From: Candidatus Berkelbacteria bacterium
Lineage (GTDB): Bacteria; Patescibacteriota; UBA1384; DTJR01
NCBI GenBank assembly: GCA_026397175.1
Contig: JAPLVK010000022.1
Span: 5,689-69,688, forward strand
Reading direction: 5' to 3'
DNA length: 64,000 bases
Shown: piece by piece, positions 9,927 through 54,906 of the stretch
How positions within the stretch are numbered: the stretch's first letter is position 1
How the letters are laid out: each line of letters starts with the position of its first letter
Notes under the pieces: generated by a model
Database searches by the model: none
Told to the model about the DNA's origin: nothing
What the model saw: only the letters and a program-made list of their open reading frames with translations
Made by a program: the position numbers and the translations under genes

Positions 9927-9964
9927 CGCATTTTGTCCGATCGGACAAAATGCGCAAATCATAA
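9927..9964. repeat. 38-bp perfect palindrome, CGATCG-core family
   Basis: atttgcgcattttgtccgatcggacaaaatgcgcaaat. Confidence 0.6.
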
Positions 9965-10090
9965 TCTATCGACAAATATTAATCTCGCATTCGCGAAGGA
10001 TTCTTCCCCCGAACTAGATCCGAGATCAATGACTAAAATTGGAGTATGCAAAGATTAAACCCTTACAAAGAGAATCATTTTAATAATTAG

Positions 10091-10146
10091 ATCAATATCA
10101 TAAATATTGATATATTGCACTTTTAGTACGATCGTACTAAAAGTGC
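10091..10146. repeat. Two adjacent palindromes upstream of the 10298 gene, including a 30-bp CGATCG-core palindrome
   Basis: atcaatat-cataa-atattgat (10091-10111) and gcacttttagtacgatcgtactaaaagtgc (10117-10146). Confidence 0.6.
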
Positions 10147-10297
10147 ATAAGATCTAGGAGAGGATACATTAAAAAATGTTAATTTACGGAAATTTTAAAA
10201 TTTGATTTGAAACAAAAATTCTGTAGCTTGAAGTTGAAATTAAGAAGAGTAAGATATTAGATAATTAAGCAATCAACAAAGTCCTTTAGGAGGGATC

Positions 10298-12034
10298 ATG
10301 GATTTGGATAAAAAACATCACGATGCGCCGAGAGTTGTGAATATTGGAATTTGGTCTATGGCCGTTGTAGGGGCACTCGCGTTTGCAATTTCGTTGGGCG
10401 GATGGTTTTATTCGTCTGTTGAATCGCCGATTTCGGCAAGTACCTCGGCCGGGTCGGGCACATGTCCGTCTGATAAACAAATTGCGATTAATAACTATCC
10501 CGGGACCAGCAAAGAATACCATGCCCTTTTGAGCAATTCGCGCGATCAAAATTGGCGATGCTCGCTTGTCTGTAATACTTCCGGAAAATCACCCGATGAG
10601 TTTATCAAAGGGTTAACAATTGGTGGAAAACCAGTAATTATTTATAGCACAGGCGATGAATTTAAAAGTAAGGGCAGTAACATCGGTAAGGATGATTTTG
10701 ACCGAGTCGTTGTTAGCGGCGCAACAAAAGGAAAATGTGAAGGCGCGAAAACCGGATCGACAAACGGCGCAAGCATTGACTATGTAGACATAAAATATAA
10801 CGACAAAGCAGTTGAACCACTTTCGAAGAATGAAACAATAAAGGAACTTTCGCAGGCAGCCAACGCCGACACAAGCAGCAATGAGCTACCAGCACCGATT
10901 GATAATCCAGGATCATCGCCAAGCGGGACAGACAGCACGACGACACCTGGACAAAAAGATGGTGTTCCAAAAATAAAGATTGTGAAACCAGGAACGCTAG
11001 ATCCCGATGCTCCGTCGTATACAATCCAAATTTCTGGAATTGAAAAATATTCCGACAGTACAAGAAAACCCGGAGATATTAGTATAACTGCAGCATTAAG
11101 CGACACTGACAGTAAGAGTGCAAAATTTCGTAATTCTCCAATTTGCGCTAGTGCTATGACACAAGGACCGGATGGTCATTATAATATGGAGTTTACGGTT
11201 GACGGAATATGGTATAGAGCAAATAGGAGTGCAAAGATATATTATTATGCTCTCGAAGAAACGGATGGGGCTATCCCTGAACAAAATAAAAGAAAACGAT
11301 CTTCATCGGATTCACTAAATAATCCAAGATATGTCCATTATGACGGCTCCACAATCCAAATAAAATATAACGAGGAATCCCTTTATGGTGTACAAGGTAG
11401 CGAAAATCCTGTTTTAACTTCAGCACAAGAATTGCAACAACAATGGGAATCTTTCGCAAGTGCGACAAAGTTAAATAGTTCACAGATGAATCAATGCGGG
11501 GGCTTGTCTTCGGGACCAACGCAAACAACGCAGGAAGTAGCGCAACAAACAATGCAGCAGATTACAAATCGAAATGGAACAGTTACATTTAAAATTTCCG
11601 GAAAAGTGTGGTGGAATTTTGCCGGAGGGTTAGAAAGTAAAAAAGCGGTTATTTGCGCAGCAATGTGGAATACTACTGACCCAGACGATCCTAAAAAAAG
11701 AAGTAAGATACCAAGCGAAGAATTCCAAAAGGTCAAGGCAAATACCAATGGAACATTTAGTATTGATTTGCCTGTAGCCATAAGGAATCTAAGGGGGCTA
11801 AGCATTGTTGCATTTGATCCCGGAGGAATTTATAGACCAAAATATTATTATTTCGGTCAAACTGCACTTGCTATGAAAAGCTATGTTATAAATGCAGTTG
11901 ACTTAACCACAAATAATTCTGCGTATGATGTCCCCTTCAACATAGGAAATCAGCTAGATCTTCAACAGGGTTATGGTGATTCAAAAAGGTGGCGAAACGA
12001 GTTCTATTATGCAACTGGTCACTACTGCGAATAG
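10298..12034 (+). CDS. Membrane-anchored large surface protein (hypothetical)
   Basis: 578 aa with an N-terminal transmembrane helix and a Ser/Thr/Asn-rich extracytoplasmic region. GGAGGGA RBS. No recognisable catalytic motif. Confidence 0.55.
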   Translation: MDLDKKHHDAPRVVNIGIWSMAVVGALAFAISLGGWFYSSVESPISASTSAGSGTCPSDKQIAINNYPGTSKEYHALLSNSRDQNWRCSLVCNTSGKSPDEFIKGLTIGGKPVIIYSTGDEFKSKGSNIGKDDFDRVVVSGATKGKCEGAKTGSTNGASIDYVDIKYNDKAVEPLSKNETIKELSQAANADTSSNELPAPIDNPGSSPSGTDSTTTPGQKDGVPKIKIVKPGTLDPDAPSYTIQISGIEKYSDSTRKPGDISITAALSDTDSKSAKFRNSPICASAMTQGPDGHYNMEFTVDGIWYRANRSAKIYYYALEETDGAIPEQNKRKRSSSDSLNNPRYVHYDGSTIQIKYNEESLYGVQGSENPVLTSAQELQQQWESFASATKLNSSQMNQCGGLSSGPTQTTQEVAQQTMQQITNRNGTVTFKISGKVWWNFAGGLESKKAVICAAMWNTTDPDDPKKRSKIPSEEFQKVKANTNGTFSIDLPVAIRNLRGLSIVAFDPGGIYRPKYYYFGQTALAMKSYVINAVDLTTNNSAYDVPFNIGNQLDLQQGYGDSKRWRNEFYYATGHYCE

Positions 12035-12048
12035 AACACTTCGACTTG

Positions 12049-13833
12049 TTAGATTATCTTCTCGAGTTCGTCGTGTTCGATGGTTTCTTTTTTGAGCAAG
12101 AGCTCGGCTAATTTTTTGAGTTTAGTTTTGTCGTGAGTCAAAATATTCTTGGCTTTCTTCTCTGATTCCAGAATAACTTTTTCGACTTCGCTATCAATCA
12201 AAGCCGCCATTTTCTCCGAATGAACTTTATGCTCGCCTAATTCGCGACCCAAAAACACGAGCTCGTCGCGCTGGGCCACAACAACCGGCCCGATGGCCTC
12301 GCTCATACCATAAACCTGAACCATATCTTTGGCAATTTTTGTGGCGCGTTCCAGATCGTTTGAAGCGCCGGTGGTCAATTTATTAAAAATCATTTTTTCG
12401 GCAACGCGTCCGGCCAAAAGTTGGGCAATATCGTTTTCGAAGTCCTCTTGCGATCTCATATAACGGTCTTCGTTTGGCATACTCCAAGTGTAGCCAAGCG
12501 CCATACCTCGGGAAATAATCGAGACCTTTTGCAGCGATTCATCGAGTTTTAAGGCCTTACCGACAATAGCGTGGCCGGACTCGTGGTAAGCGGCAATTTT
12601 CTTTTCTTCATTTGACATAACCTTACTTCTTCGCTCGGGGCCGAGAGTTACCTTCTCGACGGACTCCATAAAATTGAGCTCTGTGATGGTTTTTTGACCT
12701 TTTCTGGCCGCTAAAATAGCCGCTTCATTGACAACATTTTTTAAATCGGCGCCGCTCATACCCACAGTGTTTGAGGCAACTCGGGAAATATCAACTGATT
12801 TTTCGACCGGTTTGTTGCGCATGTGAATCTGCAAAATTTCTACCCGTTCTTTTTTGTCGGGCAGCGATAAAACCACTCGGCGGTCAAATCTACCCGGACG
12901 AAGCAGCGCCGGATCTAAAACATCCGGGCGGTTGGTGGCGGCAAGTATAATCACCCTTGTGTCGGTCTCAAAGCCATCCATCTCTACCAAAATCTGGTTT
13001 AGGGTCTGCTCGCGCTCGTCGTGGCTTCCGCCTAACCCCGCGCCTCTCTGGCGGCCAATAGCATCAAGTTCATCAATAAAAATAACGCACGGGGCGTTTC
13101 GTTTGGCTTTGTTGAACATGTCTCGGACTCTGCTTGCGCCCACACCGACAAACATTTCTACAAATTCAGAGGCGGAAATAGAAAAAAACGGGACTCCAGC
13201 TTCACCAGCCACTGCCCTAGCCAAAAGTGTTTTTCCAACACCCGGCGCTCCAACCAGCAAAACACCTTTTGGAATCTCGGCCCCAATTAATTTAAATTTG
13301 CCCGGGCTTTTTAAAAACTCGACGACTTCCATCAGTTCTTCTTTTGGCTCTTTTAATCCGGCAACATCGTTAAAAGTCGTTTTATTTTTTAATCCGGCAA
13401 GTCGTGCGGTTGATTTACCAAAACTCATGGCCTTAACATTTGCACCTTGGGCTTGGCGAAGCATAAAGTAGATAAATCCGCCGATTAGCAAAAACGGCAA
13501 AATAACAGATAAAAATGTCGGCCAGAAAGCCCCGCTATCAGGATTTTTGACATTAATATCAACTTTGTCCGGTGTGATACCATATTTTACCAGTGAGATC
13601 CCCTGCTCCTTATAGGCCTTTAATTTTGTGCCGTCTTTGAGGGTGGCAAGAATTTCGTCGTTATTGAGATTGATTTTATCAATTGTGCCATCTTGGTAGT
13701 CCTTGGCAATTTCGGAAATAGAAACATCTTTCGGGGGTTTAGAAAAAAGCGGTCCGAAAAAATTATAAAGCGCACTCGCCAGAAGCAAGGAGATAATAAT
13801 TGTAACAATTGTTCTAATTTGATTTGGTTTCAT
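12049..13833 (-). CDS. ftsH: ATP-dependent zinc metalloprotease FtsH
   Basis: N-terminal transmembrane helices, AAA Walker [24 protein letters not shown], the SRH region and the zinc motif HESGHAIVG. Confidence 0.9.
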
Positions 13834-13871
13834 AAATCTAAAACAGATCCTGCAATATGAATTTTAAAATT

Positions 13872-13948
<77 letters not shown>

Positions 13949-14079
13949 TCATATTTAGAAGAATAGCAAATTTCCTCGAATTAGTCAATTTACAGATTAA
14001 CAAATTTTGCGAAATAGTAAAGAGCTCTTTACATTTATGGTTTTTTTTATAAAATAGAAATGTGTTAAAAGTATAAAGT

Positions 14080-14156
14080 GACAGTGTAGCTCAGATGGTT
14101 AGAGCGAGGGAATCATAACCCCTAGGTCGCTGGTTCGATTCCAGCCACTGTCACCA
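14080..14156 (+). tRNA. tRNA(CAU): elongator Met or Ile2 (lysidine) type
   Basis: GACAGTG-TA-GCTC...anticodon loop AUCAUAA...T-arm GGUCGCUGGUUCGAUUCCAGC (resembles ileX-type T-arm), with encoded CCA. Confidence 0.75.
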
Positions 14157-14232
14157 CACTTCGCCCTTCGGGCTTCGCGTGGCACAGCCACCTTCTTATT
14201 TCTGGGCTACGGGTGGCAAGCAGCCATTTTTT

Positions 14233-14643
14233 TTATAAAGTGTCGAGGGCGTGGTTGACGAGAGAGTCCGCTTCTTTGTTATCCTCTCGTCTGATATGAG
14301 AAAAATTTATCGTCCCGCCGTGTTCGGATAACTTCTGCTTAATATCTAAATAAATAACTTTTAAATTTTGATCCTTCACCTTGTATTGGCCATTTAGCTG
14401 GCGGCAAACTAATTCGGAATCCAAAAGAAAATCAATATTGGCTTCTTTTTCGTTCTCCAAAACCCACTCGAGGGCTTTTTCTATGGCCGTGTATTCTGCA
14501 ACATTATTAGTTTCGACTCCGATACACTCGCTTATTTTGTGGATAATCTTACCCGATTCAAAATCAACAATTACAATCCCGATTGCGCAAGGACCGGGAT
14601 TTCCTCTTGATCCCCCGTCTGTAAAAATTTTTAACTTCTTCAT
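14233..14643 (-). CDS. rnhA: Ribonuclease HI
   Basis: FTDGGSRGNPGPCAIGIV...NNVAEYTAIEKAL...REDNKEADSL catalytic DEDD signature. Confidence 0.85.
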   Translation of the reverse strand: MKKLKIFTDGGSRGNPGPCAIGIVIVDFESGKIIHKISECIGVETNNVAEYTAIEKALEWVLENEKEANIDFLLDSELVCRQLNGQYKVKDQNLKVIYLDIKQKLSEHGGTINFSHIRREDNKEADSLVNHALDTL

Positions 14644-15677
14644 GGAGTTGCAGTTGGGTTAATGTTTGGCATCTGGCAATTTTTGCCGCAGAAAACGCCG
14701 AAATCCGCAAGCCCGACATACGCGCCGGTTGACGCATCAATTTTAGCCTGTAATTTTCTTCGCGCTTCGCCGGCCTTGCCGACTGACTCAATAATAATTG
14801 TCCCGGGTTTGTCCAAAGTCGGAGGAATTATATCAGTTACATGTTTTGCGCTGATCTTGAAAAAGATATATTTAGGATTATCACCACTAATACCACTGAC
14901 CCCGTTGGCGCTTAATCGGCCAGCAGCAGTATGGGCATCGGAAATAATTTGCGCCGCTTGTGGCTTGATTTTGAGATGACATTCCGAAAGTGCTGTACAC
15001 TTATCCAGACCATTGATAGTCATTGCGTGCGAGCTTATAATATTATTTGTTTTTTCGTCCAAAAGTTGTTCTTCTCCGGTTTTACTTAAATCAACCAGTT
15101 GATAGTTGACCGCTGAAAAGACGACATCGGAATCAAAAAATTTATGATACAAGCCGTCTGTAACCGTAAAATAAAATGGTTTTGAAAAATAAATTGTTAA
15201 ATTATCGAGCGGCGTGCTGGAATTATTAATTAAATAGGATAAATCAATATCCAAGGTGTCGTCGCAAAGCAGCCGCAAGGCCTTTTGTGTAATTGCTTGC
15301 TTGGGGGCCTCTTGCCAATTATTAAAATTCCCGTCTTCGAGGTTATTCCCGACCGATAACGCCTCCATCTTGACCGAAAGATCGTAAGAAACTTTAGGTG
15401 AATCAACTGTTTTATTCGCAATCACTTGACTCGGAAGTGTTCTAAAAACAAGCGATTCCTTGCCTTGCGATCGAGCATATTTGTAGCGCAGAAGACCGTC
15501 TTCGATGCCGCTTAAAGCCGCGCGATAAGCCATCTGGCCTTCTCTGTCTTGGCCTGATTGCTTGGTCTGCTGCGAAATCATCAAAACCGCACCGGTCAAT
15601 AAAGCCGATAAGATAATACCCATGGCAATCGCGATAAGCAACGCGGATGATTTAAATTTTAATTTTGTTTTTTTCAT
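14640..15677 (-). CDS. Pilus-associated protein with PilX-like N-terminal hydrophobic segment
   Basis: N-terminal SSALLIAIAMGIILSALLTGAVLMIS. Last protein-coding gene of the pilus operon, 4-bp overlap with rnhA. Confidence 0.45.
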   Translation of the reverse strand: MKKTKLKFKSSALLIAIAMGIILSALLTGAVLMISQQTKQSGQDREGQMAYRAALSGIEDGLLRYKYARSQGKESLVFRTLPSQVIANKTVDSPKVSYDLSVKMEALSVGNNLEDGNFNNWQEAPKQAITQKALRLLCDDTLDIDLSYLINNSSTPLDNLTIYFSKPFYFTVTDGLYHKFFDSDVVFSAVNYQLVDLSKTGEEQLLDEKTNNIISSHAMTINGLDKCTALSECHLKIKPQAAQIISDAHTAAGRLSANGVSGISGDNPKYIFFKISAKHVTDIIPPTLDKPGTIIIESVGKAGEARRKLQAKIDASTGAYVGLADFGVFCGKNCQMPNINPTATP

Positions 15678-16459
15678 CAGATCGGCCTCAAATTATTAAC
15701 GGCACTGACAAAAACCCTGGTCATCGCTTTGTTTTGATCTTGGGTCGCTAATGAATTATAGAAAAGGTCTTTAAGAGCAACGGAGTAAATTTGCGTTCCG
15801 ATTTGTCCCGATGGTCCGCCACCGTAAGAGCCGTTACCGCGAATGGTAAAAAATTTTGTAACATTTTTGTAGGCATCGCTTGGTGGGGTCTTGGCAGGAT
15901 CTATTGCAGCGCAATCGTTTGAATGAATTTTTTGGGGCGGATTGGCCGGATCGTTTATGGCGTCGGTTAAAATTGTTGCTGCTACTCCGCCAACCAAATA
16001 AGTATCGTCAATCGTACCTTCGATATCTTTTGCCAAATACATTTCCTTTCTTAAAGAAAAATAACCGTATTGTCCCGTAGCATCCTTTTTCTTAAAAACC
16101 ATATTGACCCAAACCATATATTTTCCATTGTCCAAAGTGGTATTGTCTGATTTTTCAAATGTTGCAAAACCAACGGACTGGCTGATATTTTTATCAATGT
16201 TGATAAACGAATATTTTGGATCCGCAAAATCAATCGCCACAATTCTGGAAGTGCCGAAATTGGCAGATCGAACCATCAAGTTGATATAATTCTCGGTTTG
16301 TTTGGCACACTCATTGGTTTTGGAAATGTCGGTGGTGAGTTCATTTGATTTTTTAATCATGGCAAAAGAAGCCGTCGCCATCACAATAACCATCATAAAA
16401 ATAAACGACGCAACCAGAATCTCAATAAGTGTAAAGGCCTTTGTTTTCATCTTTCCCAA
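15677..16459 (-). CDS. Prepilin-type pseudopilin (minor pilin)
   Basis: KAFTLIEILVASFIFMMVIV class-III signal, with Phe+1 and Glu+5. Confidence 0.6.
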   Translation of the reverse strand: MGKMKTKAFTLIEILVASFIFMMVIVMATASFAMIKKSNELTTDISKTNECAKQTENYINLMVRSANFGTSRIVAIDFADPKYSFINIDKNISQSVGFATFEKSDNTTLDNGKYMVWVNMVFKKKDATGQYGYFSLRKEMYLAKDIEGTIDDTYLVGGVAATILTDAINDPANPPQKIHSNDCAAIDPAKTPPSDAYKNVTKFFTIRGNGSYGGGPSGQIGTQIYSVALKDLFYNSLATQDQNKAMTRVFVSAVNNLRPI

Positions 16460-17046
16460 TCCGTAAAAATTTGCACGAGTTTAAAGTGTCTGACACCGGT
16501 TGCTTCTTCCCATTTGACATCAATAGTTGCTTGGCGACATTTGGCTGGAGGAACTGTTTGAGTGTCGACTGAAATCGGGTTGGGACACACTTTTACAGCG
16601 ACATTAAAAGCAAAATAGCCGTCCGAAAATGACGGGTCGTCCAGTTCGTTTGATTTTATTGGGACATAATTATCGTCGGGGACTGTCGTTGCATCCAACC
16701 CCTTATAAATAAATCGGCTTAAAGGATATAGTGTAAAATCCGCTTTGTTGCAATCATTTGTTGTTTTGGTTTTATAAGTGTTTGTGTCGAAGCATCTGAT
16801 ATTGATAATGTTCGGGCTTGAGACCTTGTCGTCAAAGGAAACTCGGCCGGATGATTTTATTAAATTGATCGTTTCGAAAAGATTATTGGAAATGTGCTCG
16901 GCTTGGGTATAGGCGGAATCGGCCGAGGCGGTACGGCTGGTTGAGGAAGAAAGCGCAACCGCCGCCGTTAAAACCAAAATAACAATAATTGACGCAACAA
17001 TCGCTTCAGTTATGCCAAATGATTTTAACTTTTTACTGCGTAACAT
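16447..17046 (-). CDS. Prepilin-like pseudopilin
   Basis: N-terminal KSFGITEAIVASIIVILVL hydrophobic helix of the pilin type; operon context. Confidence 0.5.
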   Translation of the reverse strand: MLRSKKLKSFGITEAIVASIIVILVLTAAVALSSSTSRTASADSAYTQAEHISNNLFETINLIKSSGRVSFDDKVSSPNIINIRCFDTNTYKTKTTNDCNKADFTLYPLSRFIYKGLDATTVPDDNYVPIKSNELDDPSFSDGYFAFNVAVKVCPNPISVDTQTVPPAKCRQATIDVKWEEATGVRHFKLVQIFTDWER

Positions 17047-17515
17047 TTACACTCCCATTGGGTGAAATTGTAACGATATCTTTAATAGTGTTGTCCTTTT
17101 TGGATACGACTTGAAGAATAAGATTAGCAACATTTTGCGCCTTTCCGGACTGGGCGGAAAAAATAATTTTTGCCGCGCTCGGCGAAACGGTCGAAGAAGT
17201 TAAATTCAAGGAATCAATCGGATTGTTTTGGGGATCATCCATATTGTCGGAGCCACCAACATTTGTACTTTTAATGAGCCGTTTCAACTCCAAAACCCCG
17301 CTATCTCCCTTTGAAACATCAACTTTATATGCGGTTGCTTCGGGGCTGTCGGGATGATAGGCGTAATTTTGCGCCCTAACAATAAAAGACGAAACCAGCC
17401 CTGCTTCGCTGGCTACGGAATTTTTTTGGCTCGTGGCATGGCTAAATATTGGGATACTTACAACCAGAAGCAGCATCGCAATTGAAATTGCCACGATCAG
17501 CTCGATGAGGGTCAT
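17033..17515 (-). CDS. Prepilin-like pseudopilin
   Basis: Begins MTLIELIVAISIAMLLLV; the true start may lie upstream. Confidence 0.5.
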   Translation of the reverse strand: MTLIELIVAISIAMLLLVVSIPIFSHATSQKNSVASEAGLVSSFIVRAQNYAYHPDSPEATAYKVDVSKGDSGVLELKRLIKSTNVGGSDNMDDPQNNPIDSLNLTSSTVSPSAAKIIFSAQSGKAQNVANLILQVVSKKDNTIKDIVTISPNGSVNVTQ

Positions 17516-17557
17516 AGATTTTATCTTGATCGTTTTCTCCTTATTATTTGGCTATGC

Positions 17558-18034
17558 TTATTTGGCGACAAAATAACAGGCGGTGGGATTCTGGGTTTTG
17601 TAAAACTGAACGATTGGGGGCGAAGAAGCAGTAATATTACACGGGGCTGTCCCTTGCTCTGCTGTCTCCATTTTATCAACGATCACGGCTGCTTTTCTGC
17701 CATCACAACTAGAAACATAAGTGTAATGCACAGTGTTGTCTGCCGGATCCACAGGAAAAGGATTTAAATACTGGCTAAGTGCGGTGAGTATTTCTGTATC
17801 ATTAGCCACAACATAAGCTGTACAGGCACCTGCCCCAACGGGATAAGTGCGGGTATTGTTTAGATAATATTGATCGAGAGCGCTGGAGATAATGTTGGCG
17901 TCGCTGATGCGGCGATTGTCGCGGGAGCGTTTTCTGGCCGGACCAAGACCCAAGACAACCAGAGTCGCTAAAATTCCGATAATTACAATAACCACCATAA
18001 GTTCAACTAGAGTAAAAGCGCGAACTTTTTTCAT
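17558..18034 (-). CDS. Type IV pilin / GspG-like pseudopilin
   Basis: MKKVRAFTLVELMVVIVIIGILATLVV. The start was taken at Met-14 of the ORF-track ORF. Confidence 0.7.
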   Translation of the reverse strand: MKKVRAFTLVELMVVIVIIGILATLVVLGLGPARKRSRDNRRISDANIISSALDQYYLNNTRTYPVGAGACTAYVVANDTEILTALSQYLNPFPVDPADNTVHYTYVSSCDGRKAAVIVDKMETAEQGTAPCNITASSPPIVQFYKTQNPTACYFVAK

Positions 18035-18062
18035 ATCCCTCCTTTTCCGCCTAAGGCGGAAT

Positions 18063-18836: not shown

Positions 18837-18865
18837 GATTTTATACGACAGATACAGTAACTGGT

Positions 18866-19360: not shown

Positions 19361-19422
19361 AAACCCTCCTTATTTTTTATCTTTTAGTTAATTTTAAAGC
19401 AAAATTTATAACAATGCAAGAT

Positions 19423-44429: not shown

Positions 44430-44456
44430 AGCAGGACCACTCTACAAATTGAAGCT

Positions 44457-44819: not shown

Positions 44820-45144
44820 GATACTCCTCTGCTAATTATATTTTACCGAGATCTTTTCCGACAAGACAAATTTAATTTTTATGAGTAAGGCATTTTTCCT
44901 CCTCGGGATAAAGAACATGTTGGTTTTCCGACTTTACGGTAGCGGGACTGTGACGGTATTAAACCGCGCTTGCCCAAACATGTTGATTAGTTTGTATTTA
45001 CTACTTAAACAACAATAATCATAATTGTCAAACAGAGATCCTAACTCAAAGTTATACAGATTACAAAATGTTACATAACTTTTAATTAACTTACTTAACT
45101 TTGTTCGGGTACCTAATAAAACTTATATATTTTTGTTCTCTCAC

Positions 45145-45292: not shown

Positions 45293-45304
45293 GTCTAGTT
45301 TGGC

Positions 45305-45613: not shown

Positions 45614-45755
45614 CTATCTAATTCCTTAAACACATTAACTTTCGACCTAATTTCAATTTTTTACAATCGAGTTCATAAATTCAAAACTTATCAACACGAT
45701 TAAATAATTGTACCCCAAATCACTAAAAATGTCAATATCAACAAAAAATCTGGGC

Positions 45756-46283: not shown

Positions 46284-46288
46284 ATCCT

Positions 46289-47383: not shown

Positions 47384-48290
47384 TTGTTTTTCCGGTTAAC
47401 TCTATAAATACATCCTCTAGCGTGGCTCGACCAACCGTTAATAGTTCCGGATTGAATTTTTGAACAAGATTCACGACCGTATTTAGATCTTTTTGATTTT
47501 TAAGGCGCAAGTCGAACTGATTTTCTTTGCCAAAAGTGTTCTGAACCCTGGCGCAACACTTAACAATTTTAGCAAATATTTTTTTATCAATCTTGCTGGC
47601 CACAAAATTAACCGAAAACGGTTCTTTTACATTCTCTATTAATTTATGCGTTTCTCCCATCGCCAAAATTTTTCCTTTGTCCATAATCGCAATTCGATCA
47701 CATAGTAACTCCGCCTCTTCCATATAATGCGTAGTCAGAACAACTGTTTTGCCTTTGCTTTTAATCTGCGATACAAGACCCCAAAGATTTCTTCGTGCAA
47801 TCGGGTCAAGTCCGGTTGTCGGTTCGTCCAAAAATACAATTTCGGGATCATTAACTAAACTCGCGACAATCGAAAACCTCTGCCGTTGACCCCCGGAAAG
47901 CTTGCCTACAAACTGTTTTTTCTTTTCGGAAAGATCGACCATATTTAACAAATCGTCGGGATTGACCGATTTTTTGTAAAAAGAGCAAAAAAGATTTAAT
48001 ATTTCACTTAATGTTAGAAAATGAAAATAGGCAGACGACTGGAGCTGTACGCCAATTTTTTCTTTAATCGCGTTTACACTTTTTTCAACATGATGACCCA
48101 AGACCACGATACTGCCAGATGTGCCCTTCCTTAAGCCCTCGATAATCTCAAGTGTTGTGGTTTTGCCCGCACCGTTTTCGCCTAAAAGCCCGAAAACCTC
48201 GCCCTTTTTTACTTCAAATGAAATATCATTGACAGCATTAAGTGTCCCGTATTTTTTGACTAAGTTTTTGACTTCAATGACATTTTTCAT
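47373..48290 (-). CDS. ABC transporter ATP-binding protein
   Basis: Walker A GLLGENGAGKTTT, signature LSGGQRQR, Walker B VFLDEPT. Confidence 0.85.
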   Translation of the reverse strand: MKNVIEVKNLVKKYGTLNAVNDISFEVKKGEVFGLLGENGAGKTTTLEIIEGLRKGTSGSIVVLGHHVEKSVNAIKEKIGVQLQSSAYFHFLTLSEILNLFCSFYKKSVNPDDLLNMVDLSEKKKQFVGKLSGGQRQRFSIVASLVNDPEIVFLDEPTTGLDPIARRNLWGLVSQIKSKGKTVVLTTHYMEEAELLCDRIAIMDKGKILAMGETHKLIENVKEPFSVNFVASKIDKKIFAKIVKCCARVQNTFGKENQFDLRLKNQKDLNTVVNLVQKFNPELLTVGRATLEDVFIELTGKTIAE

Positions 48291-48365
48291 AACTTAAATT
48301 AGTATACCAGATTTATTATTATTTTCAATGATTTACATAGTATAAAATAAGTTTATCATTATAAT

Positions 48366-49418
48366 ATGGGTGATTTTTCAACTTATTTATCATTATTTTT
48401 ATTCCTGTTTGCGGGATTGATTATTTGGATTGCCGGAATTGAACTCGCCAAGACAACAGACACGCTTGATTCCCGGTTTAAACTCGGGGACGCACTGGGT
48501 GGATTAATACTGTTGGGAATCGCGACGACTTTGCCAGAGATTGCAATTTTAATTGCGGCATCTTTATCGGGACAATACACAATTATATTGGGAAATTTAA
48601 TCGGCGGAATTTCTGTTCAGACCCTGGCCATTGTTATTTTTGATTTCACGCTCAAAGGGAAAAGACCGCTTTCGTATTTGGCCGGTTCTAAAATTCTTTG
48701 TTTTGAGGCGATTTTTGTCATCTTTATGACACTCGTGAGTATATTTGGAATGCGCTTGCCGAGAAATTTGAATTTTCACTATTTTAGTCCAATATCAGTA
48801 ATCTTAATTGTTGCCTGGGTTGGCGGACTTTACCTTCTGAACCGCGCCAGAAAACGCTCCGAGTTATATCAAGCGGAAAAAGATGCGCAGCCGGGAAGAA
48901 TGCACCACGAAAGACGCTCACAAGAAAATCATGTTTTTTATGCCAAGAAAAAAACGAGCTATGTAATTTGGATTTTTGCGCTTGCGTCGCTTGCGACACT
49001 GATTGCCGGTGTTATGTTAGAAAAAACCGGCTCATCGGTTGCGAATCATTTTGGAATCGGAGCGGGGTTATTTGCCGGAACCATCATGGCGCTCGTTACG
49101 GCTTTGCCGGAAATCAGCACGGGAATTGAATCAATTTTAATCAAAGATAACCAACTGGCGATTTCTGATATTTTCGGCGGAAACTCTTTAATGCCGGCTC
49201 TTTTTATAGTTGCCGATCTTATATCAAAAAAACCAATTTTGCCAATATCGCAAAAATCAGATATTGTTTTTGCAGTTCTTGGCGTAGCGCTAACTTTGGT
49301 TTATGCAATTTCTCTAGTCGTTAAACCCAAAAAACGATATTTCCGCCTCGGCGCCGACTCGATCGTCGTAATTATAATTTACGCCATAGGGCTATTTGTT
49401 TTGAGCAGGATCGGCTAA
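48366..49418 (+). CDS. CaCA-family sodium/calcium exchanger-like membrane protein
   Basis: Two alpha-repeat regions, GDALGGLILLGIATTLPEIAI and GLFAGTIMALVTALPEISTGI. Confidence 0.7.
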   Translation: MGDFSTYLSLFLFLFAGLIIWIAGIELAKTTDTLDSRFKLGDALGGLILLGIATTLPEIAILIAASLSGQYTIILGNLIGGISVQTLAIVIFDFTLKGKRPLSYLAGSKILCFEAIFVIFMTLVSIFGMRLPRNLNFHYFSPISVILIVAWVGGLYLLNRARKRSELYQAEKDAQPGRMHHERRSQENHVFYAKKKTSYVIWIFALASLATLIAGVMLEKTGSSVANHFGIGAGLFAGTIMALVTALPEISTGIESILIKDNQLAISDIFGGNSLMPALFIVADLISKKPILPISQKSDIVFAVLGVALTLVYAISLVVKPKKRYFRLGADSIVVIIIYAIGLFVLSRIG

Positions 49419-49488
49419 AAGTTGATCACCACTATGACACCTCGTAGGTGTCATTTAAGAGGTCGGGTTTTTATTTGTGCCAATTTTA

Positions 49489-51435
49489 TCAAATGCCCAG
49501 ATCATATTCGTCATTTTCCCAGTACATTATTACGCCATAATTACCGCTCTCGGGATCATCTTCCATGTAATTTTCTTTTATTCGCGCAATTTTAAGTCCT
49601 CGTCCGGTGTAGAATCTGATGTCGGGATCGGCCAAATTATCCCCATCTTTTTGATTTACAAATTGCTCTATTGTCAGGCTCGGGTTATCATCTTTGGCTT
49701 TTTTGAAACCAGGTACCCTCGATCCGAGAAACAGATATTTCAAGTTCTTCTGTTTTACCAATTCTTTCTGTGCTTCGATTAAGGCTACCCCTATTCTGTT
49801 ACCTTTATATTGCGCTCTAACGCCTAGCGATACAACATAAAGTGAGTTGCCGTCTTTGTTATGTCCGCCCGTAATAGTTCCGTCCTCTGAATGTACAGGA
49901 CTAATGAACCCGTTATTCGTAATTTTCTCCCAGGATTCTACATCATCTGTTGGCTCAAAATTTGAAATTTCGGAAGTGCTGACTCCTGCAATAATTCCGA
50001 ACTCATAACCCAAAAAGAATCCTTCAGGAAAAACTTTCATTCGAGATTCAAATTTTTCTCTTGGCGCTCGAACTTCTTCGGGCCATGCCTCCTCCTCTGT
50101 TCGCATGACGCCTTCGAGTTGTTCGTTCGTTATAACCTCGTCTTTTGTGTTGATTGTTTCAATGCAAATTTGCTTCAGCTGCTGTAGCCAGTCTTTATAA
50201 CAATGACACTCCTTGTTTGTTGGGTCATTTTCCCAGCTTAAAAGCTCGTTATAGTCTCGCAAGAATGATTGCTGGTCCATATCGTGATTAAAGCTACTTA
50301 AAATTTCAATAACTTTTTCATTGCAATATTTACTGCCGGTGTCTGGATTCCCCCCTGTTACAATTGAGATTCCCTCTCCGCTCAAACCGACATGTAGACC
50401 CAAATAATCAAATACATTACTCTCGCCGTCTAAGATTCTGCCACAGAGTTGTTTGATCGTTTCTGCAATACTCCAGTACATCGGTGCTTTGTAGCTTCTG
50501 AACATATGAAGCAGTGAGTCTCTATATGTTCTCGTTGGTCCGAGAGAAACATGAGGTTTTAATTCGGGTTTCAAGTTAAGATCTTTTGATATTTGGGCTA
50601 CTTGTACCGCTGATTCAATAGCCGATTTTATCGCGAAGTTTTCGCTCATTAGTCCTGGCTTAAGCAGGATGTAGAAAAATGATCTGACATTTCTTTTGGC
50701 AAGATCATCTATTATTCCGCGCAGAGCCTCTTCGCTTATGCTTTTTCTTAATTGTTCTCCAATAATCTGGTCGGTGGTTTCAAGTCCGAAGGCAATCTCG
50801 AGTCGTCTTGTACCGCCATCGCTATTTAGCCACGCAAGAACTTCATCGACCTTATCTTGCGATTGAACAATGTCAGCAAATTTTGCTTCGACAGTCAGGA
50901 CAATATTTTTGGGTGAATTTTCTCTCACAACATCAATTATTCTTTTCCTTCCGTCAGCAGAAATCTCTTCGTCGCTAAAAAATGAGCCCGAGTTAAAAAT
51001 TTCGATAATATCAATATGCTCACTCTCGAATTGAAATGAGGGACGCACTGTATTCATAGCATCTACCATCTGCTGCTCATACTGTTCTGGTGTAACGGGG
51101 TTTCCTCCAGTTGAGTAATTTTCGCTAAATACGCAAAATGCACAATTTGGGTATTCGTTAGATTCTGCGTGTGAACGACGCTTGGAACAACCGGGTGATT
51201 TTAATAAAATCGATGCTCGTCTGGCGGGTTGTCCATCGAGTGTTGTTAGGCCCCCAGTGTCAACGAAAAATGGTTTCGACACCTCTCGGGCATACATTTC
51301 AGGATTTTCTCTCGCATCTCTGGCAAGTTTAGCCGCGTCGCCCTTGTGTTCATAAACCTGCGCTATCTTTTCAGGAGCCCGAAAATCGATCCCTACATCT
51401 CCATACTCATTTTGACTTTCGACATCTGAACCCAT
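49489..51435 (-). CDS. Elp3-like radical-SAM plus GNAT (KAT) domain protein
   Basis: C-x14-C-x2-C (CSKRR...PNCAFCVF) then NYSTGGNP. IEIFNSGSFFSDEEI parallels the Elp3 'IELIIMGGTFPARDIE' motif, and ...FFYILLKPGLMSE parallels 'HLMPGMPG'. The C-terminus YKGNRIGVALIEAQK...FYTGRGLKIARIKENYMED is a GNAT motif A like the Elp3 KAT tail. Confidence 0.5.
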   Translation of the reverse strand: MGSDVESQNEYGDVGIDFRAPEKIAQVYEHKGDAAKLARDARENPEMYAREVSKPFFVDTGGLTTLDGQPARRASILLKSPGCSKRRSHAESNEYPNCAFCVFSENYSTGGNPVTPEQYEQQMVDAMNTVRPSFQFESEHIDIIEIFNSGSFFSDEEISADGRKRIIDVVRENSPKNIVLTVEAKFADIVQSQDKVDEVLAWLNSDGGTRRLEIAFGLETTDQIIGEQLRKSISEEALRGIIDDLAKRNVRSFFYILLKPGLMSENFAIKSAIESAVQVAQISKDLNLKPELKPHVSLGPTRTYRDSLLHMFRSYKAPMYWSIAETIKQLCGRILDGESNVFDYLGLHVGLSGEGISIVTGGNPDTGSKYCNEKVIEILSSFNHDMDQQSFLRDYNELLSWENDPTNKECHCYKDWLQQLKQICIETINTKDEVITNEQLEGVMRTEEEAWPEEVRAPREKFESRMKVFPEGFFLGYEFGIIAGVSTSEISNFEPTDDVESWEKITNNGFISPVHSEDGTITGGHNKDGNSLYVVSLGVRAQYKGNRIGVALIEAQKELVKQKNLKYLFLGSRVPGFKKAKDDNPSLTIEQFVNQKDGDNLADPDIRFYTGRGLKIARIKENYMEDDPESGNYGVIMYWENDEYDLGI

Positions 51436-51447
51436 TTTTCTGCTCCG

Positions 51448-52290
51448 TTATCTTTCCTTAATCATTTGTTTACCTCTAATCCTTGGCGAAAAGTTTTTGC
51501 CGGTAACTACGCTTTTCCCAGTTTTGTTTTCGAGGGCTTTTCTTGCGTCTTTCGCAATTTTACCACCTTTTTTGGCTGGAATCTTATTTTCTTCCAATCC
51601 TTTTGTTTTGTCTGTCTCGGCGATTCGTCTTGTTGAAAGTTCGGCAAGCGCGGTGAAGATCAATTCTTCTTCGCTCATATGATCTCGCAGATTTTGCGTT
51701 TTTAAGCCCTTCAAATTCTTGTGATCTTTGACGGATAAATCGCTCCATTCTTTGTGAATAATATTCGTCAATATTGCAAATTCTTCGCCCTCTTTTACTT
51801 CGTGATCAGCCCAATAATCAGTCAATTTGTTTCTGGTCTCATGCCCAGTCATCCGTTGCTGAATCCACTTTTGGCTTCGGCCCATTTTCTGCCAATAACT
51901 CCTTGATCTATCTAGTGCTTTTTCCGGATCTGCCATTTCTTGTATTCTCTCGTAACCAGTTTTCGCTAGCCACAATTTAAATGGCTCGGCTTTTTTACTC
52001 GGGACTGACTGAATGATTCTAAATATTTGTTCTGTACTGCCTGCCAAAGTTTTTCTTTTTTTCCCTGTCTCTGTGACCATTTCTACCTGGGGACAATTTG
52101 TCCCTATGTAATGCCCGACCTCGAAGTCCCTTTTGCGAAGCTTTTTGAGATAGTCGGTTGGATTTATACTATCGGTAAGTGCTGCGATAATATCAATTAC
52201 CGAAAAATACCATGTTTCGGTTTTTTCGTCATAATACCGACGAATTTTGAAGCTTTCGAAAATAGCTAATGAATTTTGTTTAATTTTCAT
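51448..52290 (-). CDS. DinD-like (DNA-damage-inducible protein D family) protein
   Basis: ...HETRNKLTDYWADHEV...NLRDHMSEEELIFTALAE resembles the E. coli DinD conserved core. Confidence 0.6.
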   Translation of the reverse strand: MKIKQNSLAIFESFKIRRYYDEKTETWYFSVIDIIAALTDSINPTDYLKKLRKRDFEVGHYIGTNCPQVEMVTETGKKRKTLAGSTEQIFRIIQSVPSKKAEPFKLWLAKTGYERIQEMADPEKALDRSRSYWQKMGRSQKWIQQRMTGHETRNKLTDYWADHEVKEGEEFAILTNIIHKEWSDLSVKDHKNLKGLKTQNLRDHMSEEELIFTALAELSTRRIAETDKTKGLEENKIPAKKGGKIAKDARKALENKTGKSVVTGKNFSPRIRGKQMIKER

Positions 52291-52294
52291 ATTT

Positions 52295-53245
52295 TCAATT
52301 CTTCAATTTTTTTAAATTAAATTTTGTGATTTCTTTGCGCACGATTTTTTCCATTTCTTTGTGTGATATTTTACCTTTACTCGATAATATTTCCAATTTA
52401 TTTGCCTTAAGCATATTGTCAAGATAAGAATCCCAGTCCTTCATATACATAACATTTTGGCGCTCAATCTGAAATTCAGCATAAGAAAGAAATTGCTCAA
52501 CCAGTAAATAAAGTTGGCGAAGCTCTGTTTCAAGCATATAATTTTTGGCGATCTCTGCTTCTTGTCTCGTTACGGAAACTTTTTTGTAATTGGTCATACC
52601 AAGATTTTCTTTTCTGCTGTCAATCCGATTAACAACTAATTCGGCGGCAGTTTTGCCTGTTATGGCATGGTGAAATTTATTCTGCATAGCAGCATAAAAC
52701 TTTTTTGTATAATCGGCTTTAGTATCATAGTCCGCACTGGTTGAAAAAATATCTTTGACTTTTTCGTATAAATTTCTTTCCGAAGCGCGAATCTTTCGGA
52801 CGCGCTCCAGCATCTCACCAAAATATCCTCGTTTGTAGCCGCCGTTTGCTAGCCGCTCATCGTCCATAACAAATCCTTTGACAATATATTCTCGCAGGGT
52901 CTTTGTCGCCCAAATACGGAATTGCGTACCCCGAAAAGATTTTACCCGATAGCCAACGGAAATAATTACATCGAGATTATATTGCTCGATTTCACGAATT
53001 ATTTCCCTTGGTCCCTCTTTTTGAACTATCCGGAATTTCCGGACAGTTGGAACCCTACTTAGTTCTCCTTCACTAAAAATATTTTTAATGTGTTCGTTTA
53101 CAGTTTTAACATCTTTCTCGAATAGTTCAGCCATCTGTTTCTGGGATAACCAAACTGTCTCGCCGGTCATCCGAACTTCAATTTGAGTTGAACCGTCTTC
53201 AGTTTTATAAATAATGACTTGGTTTTTCTTGCTAGATTCTTTCAT
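52295..53245 (-). CDS. RhuM-family protein
   Basis: VRKFRIVQKEGPREIIREIEQYNLDVIISVGYRVKSFRGTQFRIWATKTLREYIVKGFVMDDERLANGG is a close match to the RhuM signature. Confidence 0.75.
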   Translation of the reverse strand: MKESSKKNQVIIYKTEDGSTQIEVRMTGETVWLSQKQMAELFEKDVKTVNEHIKNIFSEGELSRVPTVRKFRIVQKEGPREIIREIEQYNLDVIISVGYRVKSFRGTQFRIWATKTLREYIVKGFVMDDERLANGGYKRGYFGEMLERVRKIRASERNLYEKVKDIFSTSADYDTKADYTKKFYAAMQNKFHHAITGKTAAELVVNRIDSRKENLGMTNYKKVSVTRQEAEIAKNYMLETELRQLYLLVEQFLSYAEFQIERQNVMYMKDWDSYLDNMLKANKLEILSSKGKISHKEMEKIVRKEITKFNLKKLKN

Positions 53246-53404
53246 TTACACTCTCTCTGCGCGCCATCCGTGATTTTAATGTAAGATGGATGATTTTTAT
53301 TATAAAAATTCCTTATCGCCCGTCTGCAAAAGCTTTGCTTTAGCTAATGCGGGCAGGCTAATTATTAGGGTAAAAGCGTAGCATCCCCCTCCCAAAAACT
53401 GCCA

Positions 53405-53737
53405 TCAAGTTCCCTTTCTTGCTAAATAATTAAATGCATAAAAATAATTTTGCCATGATTTGTCGGTGGATTGATATTGGTTTTCGAAAAACCAATCGGC
53501 TAAAACCTCGCGCATTCGGCAGAGTTCACGCAATTGTTTTTTATTTTTCGGATCGAGCCGTGTTATGTCAATCAGCTCCAAAGCGCGCTCGAAAGCAAGC
53601 TGCGAATATTCTAAATCATTTTTATTTTTCCAGATAATCGTTCGCTCCACTTCACTGCCGATATTGGCCATTTGCTCGGCTAACGATTTAGAAAACCATT
53701 TTTTTTCTGTTAAGTCCTTATGATAAAAAAGATTCAT
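53405..53737 (-). CDS. Hypothetical helical protein (partner of a DUF protein)
   Basis: 110 aa; start overlaps the stop of the upstream gene (ATGA). Confidence 0.35.
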   Translation of the reverse strand: MNLFYHKDLTEKKWFSKSLAEQMANIGSEVERTIIWKNKNDLEYSQLAFERALELIDITRLDPKNKKQLRELCRMREVLADWFFENQYQSTDKSWQNYFYAFNYLARKGT

Positions 53738-54075
53738 TTTTGAACTATTTTGTTAACAACTATAATTATCTTTTCGCGAATTTTTGGATCGTCAACCGAT
53801 CTTGTTCGATTGCCTTGTGAGGGGCGCAAGTTAACCATCGAATCAAATTCGATAAATTCCTCGCCGGTTTTTTCGGGATACAAATTTATTCCCCAAAGAT
53901 TTTGTTGTTTCGAACCATTTTGAAGCAGTAATTCTTCTTCGTCACTATGCATTCCCGCGTCAACAGCCATAACCTCTTTCTCAATATCAACAACCGCCTT
54001 AATCAAAGTGCCAAACATATCCTCGGCCATCTTTTTTAATTCGCTAAGTGATATATTATCTTCAATTATTTTCAT
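53734..54075 (-). CDS. Conserved small protein of unknown function
   Basis: MKIIEDNISLSELKKMAEDMFGTLIKAVVDIEKEVMAVDAGMHSDEEELLLQNGSKQQNLWGINLYPEK... Confidence 0.4.
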   Translation of the reverse strand: MKIIEDNISLSELKKMAEDMFGTLIKAVVDIEKEVMAVDAGMHSDEEELLLQNGSKQQNLWGINLYPEKTGEEFIEFDSMVNLRPSQGNRTRSVDDPKIREKIIIVVNKIVQK

Positions 54076-54189
54076 AAATTAATATTTACCTCACCTTAAG
54101 CTTCCCATAAATCAAGAAAAAAATAAAGTCCAAGCATCGGTTCTAATTTTGCAACTTTAAAAATTCACTCATTTTCCCTTTCTCCCCTG

Positions 54190-54217
54190 CACTTTTGAGA
54201 CGATCGTCTCAAAAGTG
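54190..54217. repeat. 28-bp perfect palindrome (CGATCG-core family), left bracket of the PaaX-like gene
   Basis: cacttttgagacgatcgtctcaaaagtg. Confidence 0.7.
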
Positions 54218-54262
54218 TATGCCTCAAACCTGTATTTACTTGCTAGTTTTTATAATATGAGA

Positions 54263-54841
54263 TTAAAGATCGAATTTATTTTTAAGATATTCTTCACAAT
54301 CAATCTTGGAAAGTTCTCCGTAATTAACAAATTTTTCAACTTCAAAGACCGAACTAATAAAAGATATCTCATCCTCGCACTTATAGGGGCAAACCCAAAC
54401 ACTTTTTTGCAATTTGACAAAACCGATTTCTATCAATTTACTTCTCAAAATATTTCTAGCAAATCGGAGTTTTTCGGGAATATCAAAAAATACTATTCTC
54501 CATTTGCCATCCCATTTATGTTTATTAATCGAAATAGCATCAATGTCATAATCCACTAACCTTACCTTACCTTTTTGTGTAATTTTAATAATTGTTTTGC
54601 CTTTTCGATAGGTAATCTGAACAAATCGGTCCTTAATTATTTTCTCGAGTGATTTATCAACTGCTTCATCGCCGTGTTTCTTGCGCAGCTTGTTCAGTTT
54701 GGGAATAAATTTTGAAAGCCCATAAGGAGAAGTCAAGGCAACACCGATTACCAAACCAATCAGCACCACTTCCAATACCAATTTTGCTACCTCAACGAAA
54801 ACTTCTTTTTCATATTTGGTAAGCCGAACCTTTGAACTCAT
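54263..54841 (-). CDS. PaaX-C/Cas2-fold domain protein with N-terminal transmembrane helix
   Basis: WDGKWRIVFFDIPEKLRFARNILRSKLIEIGFVKLQKSVWVCPY resembles the PaaX C-terminal (Cas2/VapD-like) domain. ATG at Met-13 of the ORF-track ORF; the track's GTG start would sit inside the palindrome. Confidence 0.5.
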   Translation of the reverse strand: MSSKVRLTKYEKEVFVEVAKLVLEVVLIGLVIGVALTSPYGLSKFIPKLNKLRKKHGDEAVDKSLEKIIKDRFVQITYRKGKTIIKITQKGKVRLVDYDIDAISINKHKWDGKWRIVFFDIPEKLRFARNILRSKLIEIGFVKLQKSVWVCPYKCEDEISFISSVFEVEKFVNYGELSKIDCEEYLKNKFDL

Positions 54842-54872
54842 ATACTTAACATTATCACTAATTTGAATCCTC

Positions 54873-54906
54873 TGCACTTTTGAGACGATCGTCTCAAAAG
54901 TGCAGG
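54873..54906. repeat. 34-bp perfect palindrome (extends to about 40 bp imperfect), right bracket of the PaaX-like gene
   Basis: ctgcacttttgagacgatcgtctcaaaagtgcag. Confidence 0.7.

Follow-up and report, generated by a model that had tools for sequence, protein, structure and literature searches.

Introduction

The repressor PaaX is built from a winged helix, a motif for dimerization, and a C-terminal domain, and it represses its own Px promoter by steric hindrance, blocking RNA polymerase; its operator, TGATTC-N27-GAATCA, is a 39-bp inverted repeat whose half-sites lie far apart (PMC9493321). A different association between a gene and palindromic DNA is described for the repetitive extragenic palindromes (REPs) and the REP-associated tyrosine transposases (RAYTs), in which a gene that is single-copy and inherited vertically has its cognate extragenic palindromes on both sides, each paralog has its own palindrome class, and solo palindromes are dispersed in intergenic DNA, often at the 3′ ends of genes (PMC2817692, PMC3116915). 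Here we analyze a 64,000-nt stretch of DNA from an ultra-small Candidatus Berkelbacteria bacterium (contig JAPLVK010000022.1; the whole stretch is called the window below), in which a small gene for a relative of PaaX, which we name mini-PaaX, lies between two long perfect palindromes, and two further palindromes of the same kind stand elsewhere. We propose, at a probability that we put at roughly 0.55, that the palindromes flanking mini-PaaX are the cognate sites of an autoregulating dimeric DNA-binding protein. The literature that we searched holds no description of the mini-PaaX family, the module, or the palindromes, and a module of palindrome, leaderless mini-PaaX gene, and palindrome, with solo copies elsewhere, appears to be undescribed in it.

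Results

Four Long Palindromes Share a CGATCG Center

Four perfect palindromes in the window are centered on CGATCG, and two of them bracket the mini-PaaX gene:

P1, 9922-9959, no strand: perfect palindrome with 19-nt arms, ATTTGCGCATTTTGTCCGATCGGACAAAATGCGCAAAT, which reads ATTTGCGCATTTTGTC-CGATCG-GACAAAATGCGCAAAT; a solo copy with a TGCGC clamp
P2, 10116-10147, no strand: perfect palindrome with 16-nt arms, TGCACTTTTAGTA-CGATCG-TACTAAAAGTGCA; a solo copy about 150 nt 5′ of the gene that starts at 10298
P3, 54190-54217, no strand: perfect palindrome with 14-nt arms, CACTTTTGAGA-CGATCG-TCTCAAAAGTG; 45 nt past the mini-PaaX stop codon
Mini-PaaX gene, 54263-54841, minus strand: 192 aa, a winged helix and a Cas2-like domain (PF20803); between P3 and P4
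P4, 54872-54905, no strand: perfect palindrome with 17-nt arms, CTGCACTTTTGAGA-CGATCG-TCTCAAAAGTGCAG; upstream of the mini-PaaX gene

An earlier note on this DNA had reported four perfect CGATCG-centered palindromes, and all four exist. Their coordinates needed correction: P1 had been placed 5 nt too high (9927-9964), P4 was 1 nt off (54873-54906), and P2 extends by one more base pair on each side than had been reported.

Perfect palindromes with arms of at least 12 nt number five in the window and zero in 20 shuffled versions of it; with arms of at least 10 nt there are six, against a mean of 0.05 in the same shuffles. The CGATCG hexamer itself is not over-represented in the window (21 occurrences versus 16.2 expected, with 14 of 100 shuffles reaching 21), so the signal is one of long symmetry and not of a short iterated motif, and a highly iterated palindrome of the HIP1 type (GCGATCGC) is ruled out. 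The degenerate pattern proposed in the earlier note as a search for additional members gave, within the window, no further convincing match, and the half-site pattern TGCACTTT-N16-AAAGTGCA with at most one mismatch finds P2, P3, and P4 only. P2 resembles P3 and P4 in its outer half-sites and core, while its inner 4 nt are different yet symmetric. The TGCGC clamp of P1 resembles the palindromes of a second paralog subfamily (L010, L007, and L001; loci and contigs used for comparison are cited by L numbers), and P1, read by eye, matches the L010 half-site at 17 of 20 positions.

Folded as single strands, P1–P4 give z-scores of −6.7 to −8.7. Rfam offers no credible family at the palindromes, and a terminator scan does not flag P1–P4, though it flags the neighboring classical hairpins at 9872-9901 and 54991-55014. 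All four have a T-run 5′ of the inner stem and an A-run 3′ of it (TTTT-stem-AAAA).

Perfect palindromes of other kinds also occur in the window. One of these, TTTTTTTGCGTACGCAAAAAAA at 57529-57550, has the core C-GTAC-G between T and A tracts and stands 21 nt upstream of a gene for an AbiEii-like nucleotidyltransferase toxin (56954-57508, minus strand), for which it may serve as an operator, unless it is a site of a related kind. Another, the AT-rich 24-bp CAAAATATATTTAAATATATTTTG at 8578-8601, lies within the UvrD/PcrA coding sequence.

Mini-PaaX Is a Homolog of PaaX

The product of the enclosed gene is identical to NTZ65_04500 (NCBI) of a Candidatus Berkelbacteria metagenome-assembled genome (Candidate Phyla Radiation [CPR]/Patescibacteria). 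Pfam assigns it to PF20803 (PaaX_M) with E = 7.3e-22 and 77.7 bits against a cutoff of 24, together with a weak match to CRISPR_Cas2, and PF20803 is carried by all 91 homologs. PF20803 is the central, Cas2-like domain of PaaX, and not the PaaX C-terminal domain, as the earlier note had called it. The AlphaFold2 model (predicted local distance difference test score 82.7) shows a winged helix-turn-helix, with helices at residues 39–45, 48–56, and 58–70 and a β-hairpin wing at 74–87, followed by a ferredoxin-like domain.

A Foldseek search with this model returned E. coli PaaX (8a39) first (probability 1.0, E = 7e-4, with an alignment of 150 columns of the 305-residue chain) and then the PaaX-family structure 3l09; lower in the ranking came 3kfw (Rv0674, deposited as uncharacterized). 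Cas2 structures match the C-terminal half at probabilities of 0.84–0.99, and the N-terminal half has weak PDB matches to the winged-helix DNA binders F-93, AspA, TubR, and MarR. Aligned by hhalign, mini-PaaX and E. coli K-12 PaaX correspond across the wing and the Cas2-like domain (probability 87%, E = 4e-6), with residues 55–95 of mini-PaaX opposite the PaaX recognition helix and wing. Mini-PaaX is a structural and sequence homolog of PaaX. It ends at residue 192, directly past the Cas2-like domain, with no other Pfam match, and we chose its name because the C-terminal effector domain of PaaX is missing. Its segments IVFFDIP...LQKSVWV align with IVFFDLP...QQKSVYS of the genuine Cas2 6jhz, and these signature positions are lost in E. 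coli PaaX (LLLSEGL...LAPSLMA).

The hydrophobic N-terminal helix (residues 9–28) was considered as a transmembrane anchor and rejected, as the model packs it into the soluble domain; from the N-terminal consensus of PaaX, we take it to be the hydrophobic first helix of the winged-helix domain.

The Arrangement Recurs across the Family

Scanning one genome per species, we found at least 584 relatives and kept 80 loci, of which 78 are labeled CPR, Patescibacteria, or unclassified bacterium and the other two Nanoarchaeota and Gammaproteobacteria. Clustering at 50% identity (E ≤ 1e-30) divides the family into 1,393 clusters, and almost all of those listed measure 180–240 aa; several paralogs occur per genome. 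A strong palindrome lies within 250 bp of the gene at 37 of the 80 loci (upstream at 24, downstream at 26, on both sides at 13), a 17-fold enrichment that corresponds to 1.26 strong palindromes per kb within this distance and 0.074 per kb elsewhere (1.15 Mb of flanking DNA). Most loci without strong palindromes have weaker core-containing motifs common to both sides.

Across the family, palindrome arms reach 29 nt, and the flanking palindromes are 28–44 bp long and stand about 610–815 bp apart. Their center generalizes to C-NNNN-G, where NNNN is GATC, ATAT, TATA, GGCC, AATT, or CATG; non-palindromic centers (GACC/GGTC, TATC/GATA, and TATT) occur too. At the 13 two-copy loci, the copies are alike for 16–22 nt outward from the dyad, a span of 32–44 bp, and then diverge. 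Specifically, an ortholog 78% identical to mini-PaaX (L004–L006) has TGCACTTTTGAGACGATCGTCTCAAAAGTGCA on both flanks, a relative 62% identical (L007) has TGTCGCTTTTCATACGATCGTATGAAAAGCGACA upstream and TTTGTCGCTTTTCCTACGATCGTAGGAAAAGCGACAAA downstream, and the same-genome paralog NTZ65_01810 (L001–L003), 59% identical, has its own, different CGATCG palindromes. Orientation is readable from asymmetric copies only, perfect palindromes being uninformative; by eye, such flanking copies are direct repeats in L012, L018, L044, L049, L061, and L081 and inverted repeats in L054 and L072. At some loci, additional cognate copies occur at a distance of a few kb: in L023 and L072 they stand on both sides of large surface-protein genes, and in L037 several are arrayed upstream of one gene. 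The homologous loci have varied housekeeping neighbors with no association with paa or styrene catabolic genes, and the Pfam-scanned neighbors of the module in the window (a Cys-rich 573-aa protein, DUF5674, RhuM, and AbiEii) include no paa genes.

Short-read and Logan contigs often start or end inside palindromes or no more than about 100 nt from them (the ends of L138, L140, L160, L161, and L168), and three Logan contigs (L001–L003) begin exactly inside the upstream palindrome of NTZ65_01810. Palindromes break de Bruijn short-read assemblies, so the modules are probably under-sampled in metagenome assemblies.

Paired Palindromes Are Conserved and Vary Together

Over 732 bp, the module of the window and that of L004 share 76.8% identity, with an alignment that stops at the outer edges of the palindromes. 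The four palindrome copies of the two modules are 100% identical: P3, the core of P4, and both L004 copies are one and the same sequence. Judged by these alignments, the palindromes of both modules are apparently under purifying selection. The L004 module occupies the orthologous position, with a member of the ~573-aa Cys-rich family upstream and a homologous gene of 110/122 aa downstream, and the window locus has a DUF5674 gene added. Presence or duplication of the unit in related genomes had been raised in the earlier note; the unit is present as an ortholog in L004 and in single copy in the window, and no identical multi-copy units were seen.

Where paired copies differ, they do so by symmetric double substitutions (L007, L011, L052, and L053). 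Two copies that stay alike while drifting together point to a shared recognizing factor, for which the enclosed protein is the obvious candidate. In 24 of 43 cases the nearest protein neighbor shares the core, where chance would give 23%, and this match between core type and protein relatedness is partly simple linkage. The recognition helix reads SLEK with a TGCAC clamp and SLNK with a G(Y)CGC clamp, a comparison of two sequences with three. Imperfect copies keep the core and the outer arms and lose symmetry in the inner spacer, and their mismatches are not biased toward G·T (downstream copies: 8 G·T, 5 A·C, and 20 other). Asymmetry in the inner spacer and unbiased mismatches fit half-sites on duplex DNA better than an RNA or DNA stem.

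The Flanking Copies Are Positioned at a Putative Promoter and at the Gene End

The space between P4 and the start codon contains one further element:

Putative −10 box, 54851-54856, minus strand: GATAAT, 9 nt before the mini-PaaX ATG; P4 ends 15 nt ahead of it

No full −35/−10 promoter was found at the mini-PaaX gene, which has no −35 consensus. Among 79 homologous loci, −10-like hexamers peak 5–9 nt before the ATG (34 versus about 7 expected), and a Shine-Dalgarno-like motif is absent from 73; together, these two features imply that the family would be expressed from leaderless or near-leaderless mRNAs. The upstream palindrome of family members ends 0–35 nt ahead of a TATAAT-like box, and its center, placed from the position of the −10 box, falls at about −35 to −54. 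In L052, TATAAT follows the palindrome directly, while in L011 the end of the palindrome completes an extended −10 element (TGaTATAAT). Counted from the inferred transcription start of mini-PaaX, P4 would occupy about −28 to −61.

Relative to the stop codon, downstream copies are found at −5 to +66 nt, apart from a single one at +105 in L037. An upstream copy is present at 7 of the 22 loci that have a divergent upstream neighbor, and a downstream copy at 8 of the 23 that have a convergent downstream neighbor. Because they are kept beside such neighbors, the palindromes belong to the enclosed gene and not to the genes around it. The same counts rule out the upstream palindrome as being simply a terminator of the preceding gene and the downstream palindrome as being simply an operator of the next gene, the start of which is 27–545 nt away.

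A DnaA-box-like nonamer, TTATCCACA, was also noted: 2.07 Mb of CPR loci contain 52 copies, where about 16 would be expected. It stands directly after palindromes in four places (sites listed: L023 at 10551 and 14745, L032 at 10572, and L044 at 10393) and immediately 5′ of a TTGAC-type −35-like element in L023 (14745), L057, L085, and L086, which suggests a promoter-associated motif of the CPR.

Solo Copies and the Gene at 10298

A metagenome scan with the pattern CACTTTT-N4-CGATCG-N4-AAAAGTG returned 109 stretches, against about 1 estimated by chance. N4 is symmetric in 47 of the 81 sites listed (chance, 1 in 256), the arms reach 27 nt, and the outer extensions are copy-specific yet symmetric. 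One solo palindrome is fully kept, together with 14 adjoining nt, beside the end of a cyclophilin-like gene that has diverged by about 25% (read by eye, in a gene outside the scan). Further, short Logan contigs of the source genome contained no palindromes.

Within the window, the solo copies P1 and P2 precede one gene:

Gene at 10298, 10298-12034, plus strand: 578-aa secreted or surface-type protein with no Pfam hit; candidate target of P2 and P1

P1, P2, and this gene are carried by a lineage-specific 2.8-kb insert (9277-12048) between FtsH and UvrD, which also holds a doubtful 137-aa open reading frame (ORF) and a plus-strand terminator (9872-9901). In three related Berkelbacteria contigs (L198–L200), FtsH and UvrD are adjacent (68–280 bp) without a palindrome. 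The earlier note had suggested that the 10298 gene would belong to the regulon, and this is only plausible: P2 has the half-sites and core of P3 and P4, though the gene begins some 150 nt downstream of it and has a normal ribosome-binding site. The gene may be under both mini-PaaX paralogs, to judge from the two types of site in front of it.

The 578-aa protein was also considered as a paralog of the module-adjacent 573-aa protein and rejected, since BLASTP shows no similarity. The terminator at 9872-9901 (plus strand) is a strong intrinsic one, with a 13-bp G+C-rich stem and a T-run, and no gene on that strand precedes it. It runs antisense to the ORF at 9358-9771, suggesting either that a plus-strand transcript has gone unannotated or that the ORF is spurious. 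A direct repeat, CCACACTTTAGTGTGTT, occurs twice near 9340-9415.

Other Features of the Window

The ~573-aa Cys-rich family, which has no Pfam hit, has one copy in the window (55233-56954, minus strand), adjoining the module; in L004, four to five tandem Cys-rich paralogs, one of them split into two ORFs, occupy 6351-14774. An AdoCbl-II (cobalamin) riboswitch aptamer lies at 44914-44984 on the minus strand (40.3 bits, above the Rfam gathering threshold). At 61228-61863 (minus strand), two tRNA-Trp(CCA) genes 560 bp apart surround a 155-aa ORF in DNA with a G+C content of 0.52, versus about 0.40 for the window; a second G+C-rich stretch is found at 2001-4000. Two divergent tRNA-Met genes lie at 13872-14156.

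Discussion

In the reading that we favor, proteins of a CPR-wide mini-PaaX family bind the four palindromes as their cognate double-stranded sites. In a mini-PaaX dimer, the winged helices would rest on the two outer arms TGCAC...GTGCA, separated by about 22 bp, with the Cas2-like dimer positioned over the conserved C-NNNN-G dyad. P4 would overlap the −35 region of the gene's own leaderless promoter, such that the protein would control its own synthesis as PaaX does, while P3, past the stop codon, could serve either as a second operator that loops with P4 or as a roadblock insulating the gene. The solo copies would be further sites, with P2 bound by mini-PaaX (NTZ65_04500) and P1 by its paralog NTZ65_01810, and they could bring the adjacent accessory surface-protein gene under the same control. 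From the anatomy, conservation, site positions, and homology reported above, we infer the binding, the direction of regulation, the looping, and the role given here to the Cas2-like domain. The idea of PaaX-like operators and autoregulation, put forward in the earlier note, gains support from the homology to PaaX, the precedent of PaaX itself, the location of P4 at the −10 box, and the family-wide abutment of palindrome and −10 box.

Several observations weigh against this reading. The symmetry is perfect even where copies differ from one another, at the inner 4 nt and in the outer extensions, and a dimeric transcription factor does not need such full symmetry. A family gene adjoins the palindrome in only about 10 of 80 metagenome contigs; the other sites are intergenic, beside unrelated housekeeping genes (DHFR, EF-G, TrmD, GrpE, RpoC, and S7). 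By eye, solo sites number about 12 where the neighboring genes converge, 6 where they diverge, and 13 where they are in tandem, and those between convergent genes count against an operator because there is no promoter there to regulate. The geometry of P2, set well back from a gene with a normal Shine-Dalgarno sequence, is unlike that of the family's own promoter, and the downstream copy, as a putative operator, is tied to the stop codon. Furthermore, W110, F119, D120, Q145, S147, and P152 show no variation among the 80 family members; D120 is the Asp that is catalytic in Cas2, and its invariance hints at a possible enzymatic role. A pure operator model leaves unexplained the stop-codon-tied downstream copy, the solo copies at convergent genes, and the invariant Asp.

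An alternative that we regard as unlikely is a REP/RAYT-like system on the Cas2 fold, in which mini-PaaX would be a palindrome-specific nuclease or nickase acting on hairpins or cruciforms and would disperse or maintain palindromes genome-wide, with its gene flanked by its own substrates. A single, vertically inherited gene between cognate palindromes and palindrome classes specific to each paralog are what such a system would display, although mini-PaaX is not a HUH transposase and has no Y1_Tnp match by Pfam or fold search. Solo copies are intergenic and have unrelated genes as neighbors, frequently at their 3′ ends or where two genes converge; the palindromes as a whole appear sparse, however (4 in the 64-kb window, and strong ones at 0.074 per kb of flanking DNA, where REPs exceed 100 per genome), and neither insertion polymorphism nor identical dispersed copies were seen. 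Intrastrand complementarity is perfect at copy-variable positions, and the center can be read as a C-G-closed tetraloop whether it is palindromic or not (GACC, TATC, and TATT); against a hairpin substrate, imperfect copies are unpaired next to the loop and keep their outer arms. The Cas2 catalytic-type Asp and QxS motif are invariant, as an enzyme would have them, whereas the flanking copies that reveal orientation are mostly direct, not inverted (by eye), and the upstream copy stands in a fixed relation to the −10 box. More doubtful to us is the specific proposal that mini-PaaX proteins are active Cas2-type nucleases, targeted by the winged helix, that cut or nick palindromes at the C-NNNN-G dyad in cruciform or hairpin form and so create, homogenize, or disperse them, as a domesticated system of the REP/RAYT type on a Cas2 fold.

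It is improbable that the palindromes act at the RNA level, as transcribed elements forming stable 3′ or 5′ hairpins (terminators, stabilizers, or processing sites), perhaps recognized by the winged helix and a Cas2-type ribonuclease. Some Cas2 and VapD proteins are ribonucleases, the downstream and solo copies lie near stop codons, and the predicted hairpins are very stable, as the z-scores given above attest; the upstream copy, however, would lie outside the gene's own transcript, because the leaderless promoter sits between the palindrome and the ATG. Some family members are A-tract/stem/T-tract variants resembling bidirectional terminators (L014, L032, and L065), but P1–P4 have the order TTTT-stem-AAAA, opposite to that of an intrinsic terminator, and were not flagged in the terminator scan. 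Neither the absence of an Rfam match nor the lack of a G·U-compatible bias among the mismatches speaks for a conserved RNA stem.

A small excisable or mobile cassette, whose flanking copies would serve for recombination or attachment or as transposon termini (the latter also suggested in the earlier note) and whose solo palindromes would be footprints of gene loss, is very improbable: the near-identical flanking repeats, the nucleotide homology to the ortholog ending at their outer edges, the existence of solo copies, P1 and P2 within a lineage-specific insert, and the multi-palindrome array in L037 would suit it, but the module sits between the same neighbor gene families in the genome with the 77%-identical copy, asymmetric copies are mostly direct repeats, the same-genome paralogs are 59% identical with different palindromes, which argues against recent transposition, no target-site duplications were seen, and no recombinase or transposase was found among five genes scanned on either side of the module, with the genes between and the rest of the window unscanned.

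CPR/Patescibacteria make up a large share of bacterial diversity and have very small genomes, and to our knowledge almost none of their regulators has been characterized experimentally. For many mini-PaaX members, a cognate site of 30–44 bp can be read from the sequence, which would provide a testable protein–DNA recognition code, and the loci offer a CPR promoter model (leaderless, −10 only) and possible orthogonal repressor–operator pairs. If the Cas2 signature is catalytic, mini-PaaX would be a Cas2-fold protein tied to genomic palindromes outside CRISPR, and we know of no earlier one. Were the nuclease proposal true, the protein would be a free-living relative of a CRISPR adaptation protein that recognizes palindromic repeats, with a bearing on how Cas2 was recruited to repeat arrays.

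Comparison with Known Systems

The mini-PaaX locus is like REP/RAYT (REPIN) systems in that the gene lies between cognate palindromes, the palindrome classes are paralog-specific, and solo copies are intergenic. It differs in its PaaX/Cas2 fold, where RAYTs have the HUH Y1 (IS200/IS605-like) transposase fold; probably in the number of palindromes, which would extrapolate from the window and flanking DNA to tens per genome at most, not hundreds; and in its flanking copies, which are mostly direct, with the upstream one fixed at the promoter.

With Cas2 of CRISPR adaptation, mini-PaaX shares the ferredoxin-like fold, the β1-Asp, and the QxSV motif. Cas2 dimers contact duplex DNA within Cas1-Cas2 complexes. 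Unlike Cas2, mini-PaaX has its Cas2-like domain fused to a winged helix, and the repeats that go with it are two gene-flanking palindromes; no cas1 was found among the genes scanned beside it or in the gene tables of the homologous loci, and the window was not given a dedicated search for a CRISPR array.

The immunity region of phage lambda (OR - cI-rexA-rexB - OL) likewise places a repressor gene between operators, the upstream one lying over the gene's own promoter. There, three imperfect 17-bp operators stand on each side, and bound repressor dimers can loop the intervening DNA, a loop of 2.4 kb. The mini-PaaX module has a single perfect palindrome per side and a much shorter interval, as measured above, and its looping is a proposal.

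In PaaX, the phenylacetyl-CoA-responsive repressor of the paa operon in E. coli and Pseudomonas, as in mini-PaaX, a winged helix is followed by a Cas2-like middle domain. Mini-PaaX is shorter (192 aa versus 316 aa) and has no C-terminal (phenylacetyl-CoA) effector domain, its scanned neighbors are not paa genes, and the Cas2 signature, which is gone from PaaX, is retained in it (FFDIP...QKSVW). Each of its sites is a perfect palindrome built on a conserved dyad core, another site lies past the stop codon, and the family is CPR-centered (78 of 80 loci, counting those labeled unclassified bacterium) with several paralogs per genome. In its spacing, however, the PaaX operator resembles the TGCAC-N22-GTGCA arrangement found here, where the shared span is 32–44 bp, and the overlap with the promoter is comparable in the two systems.

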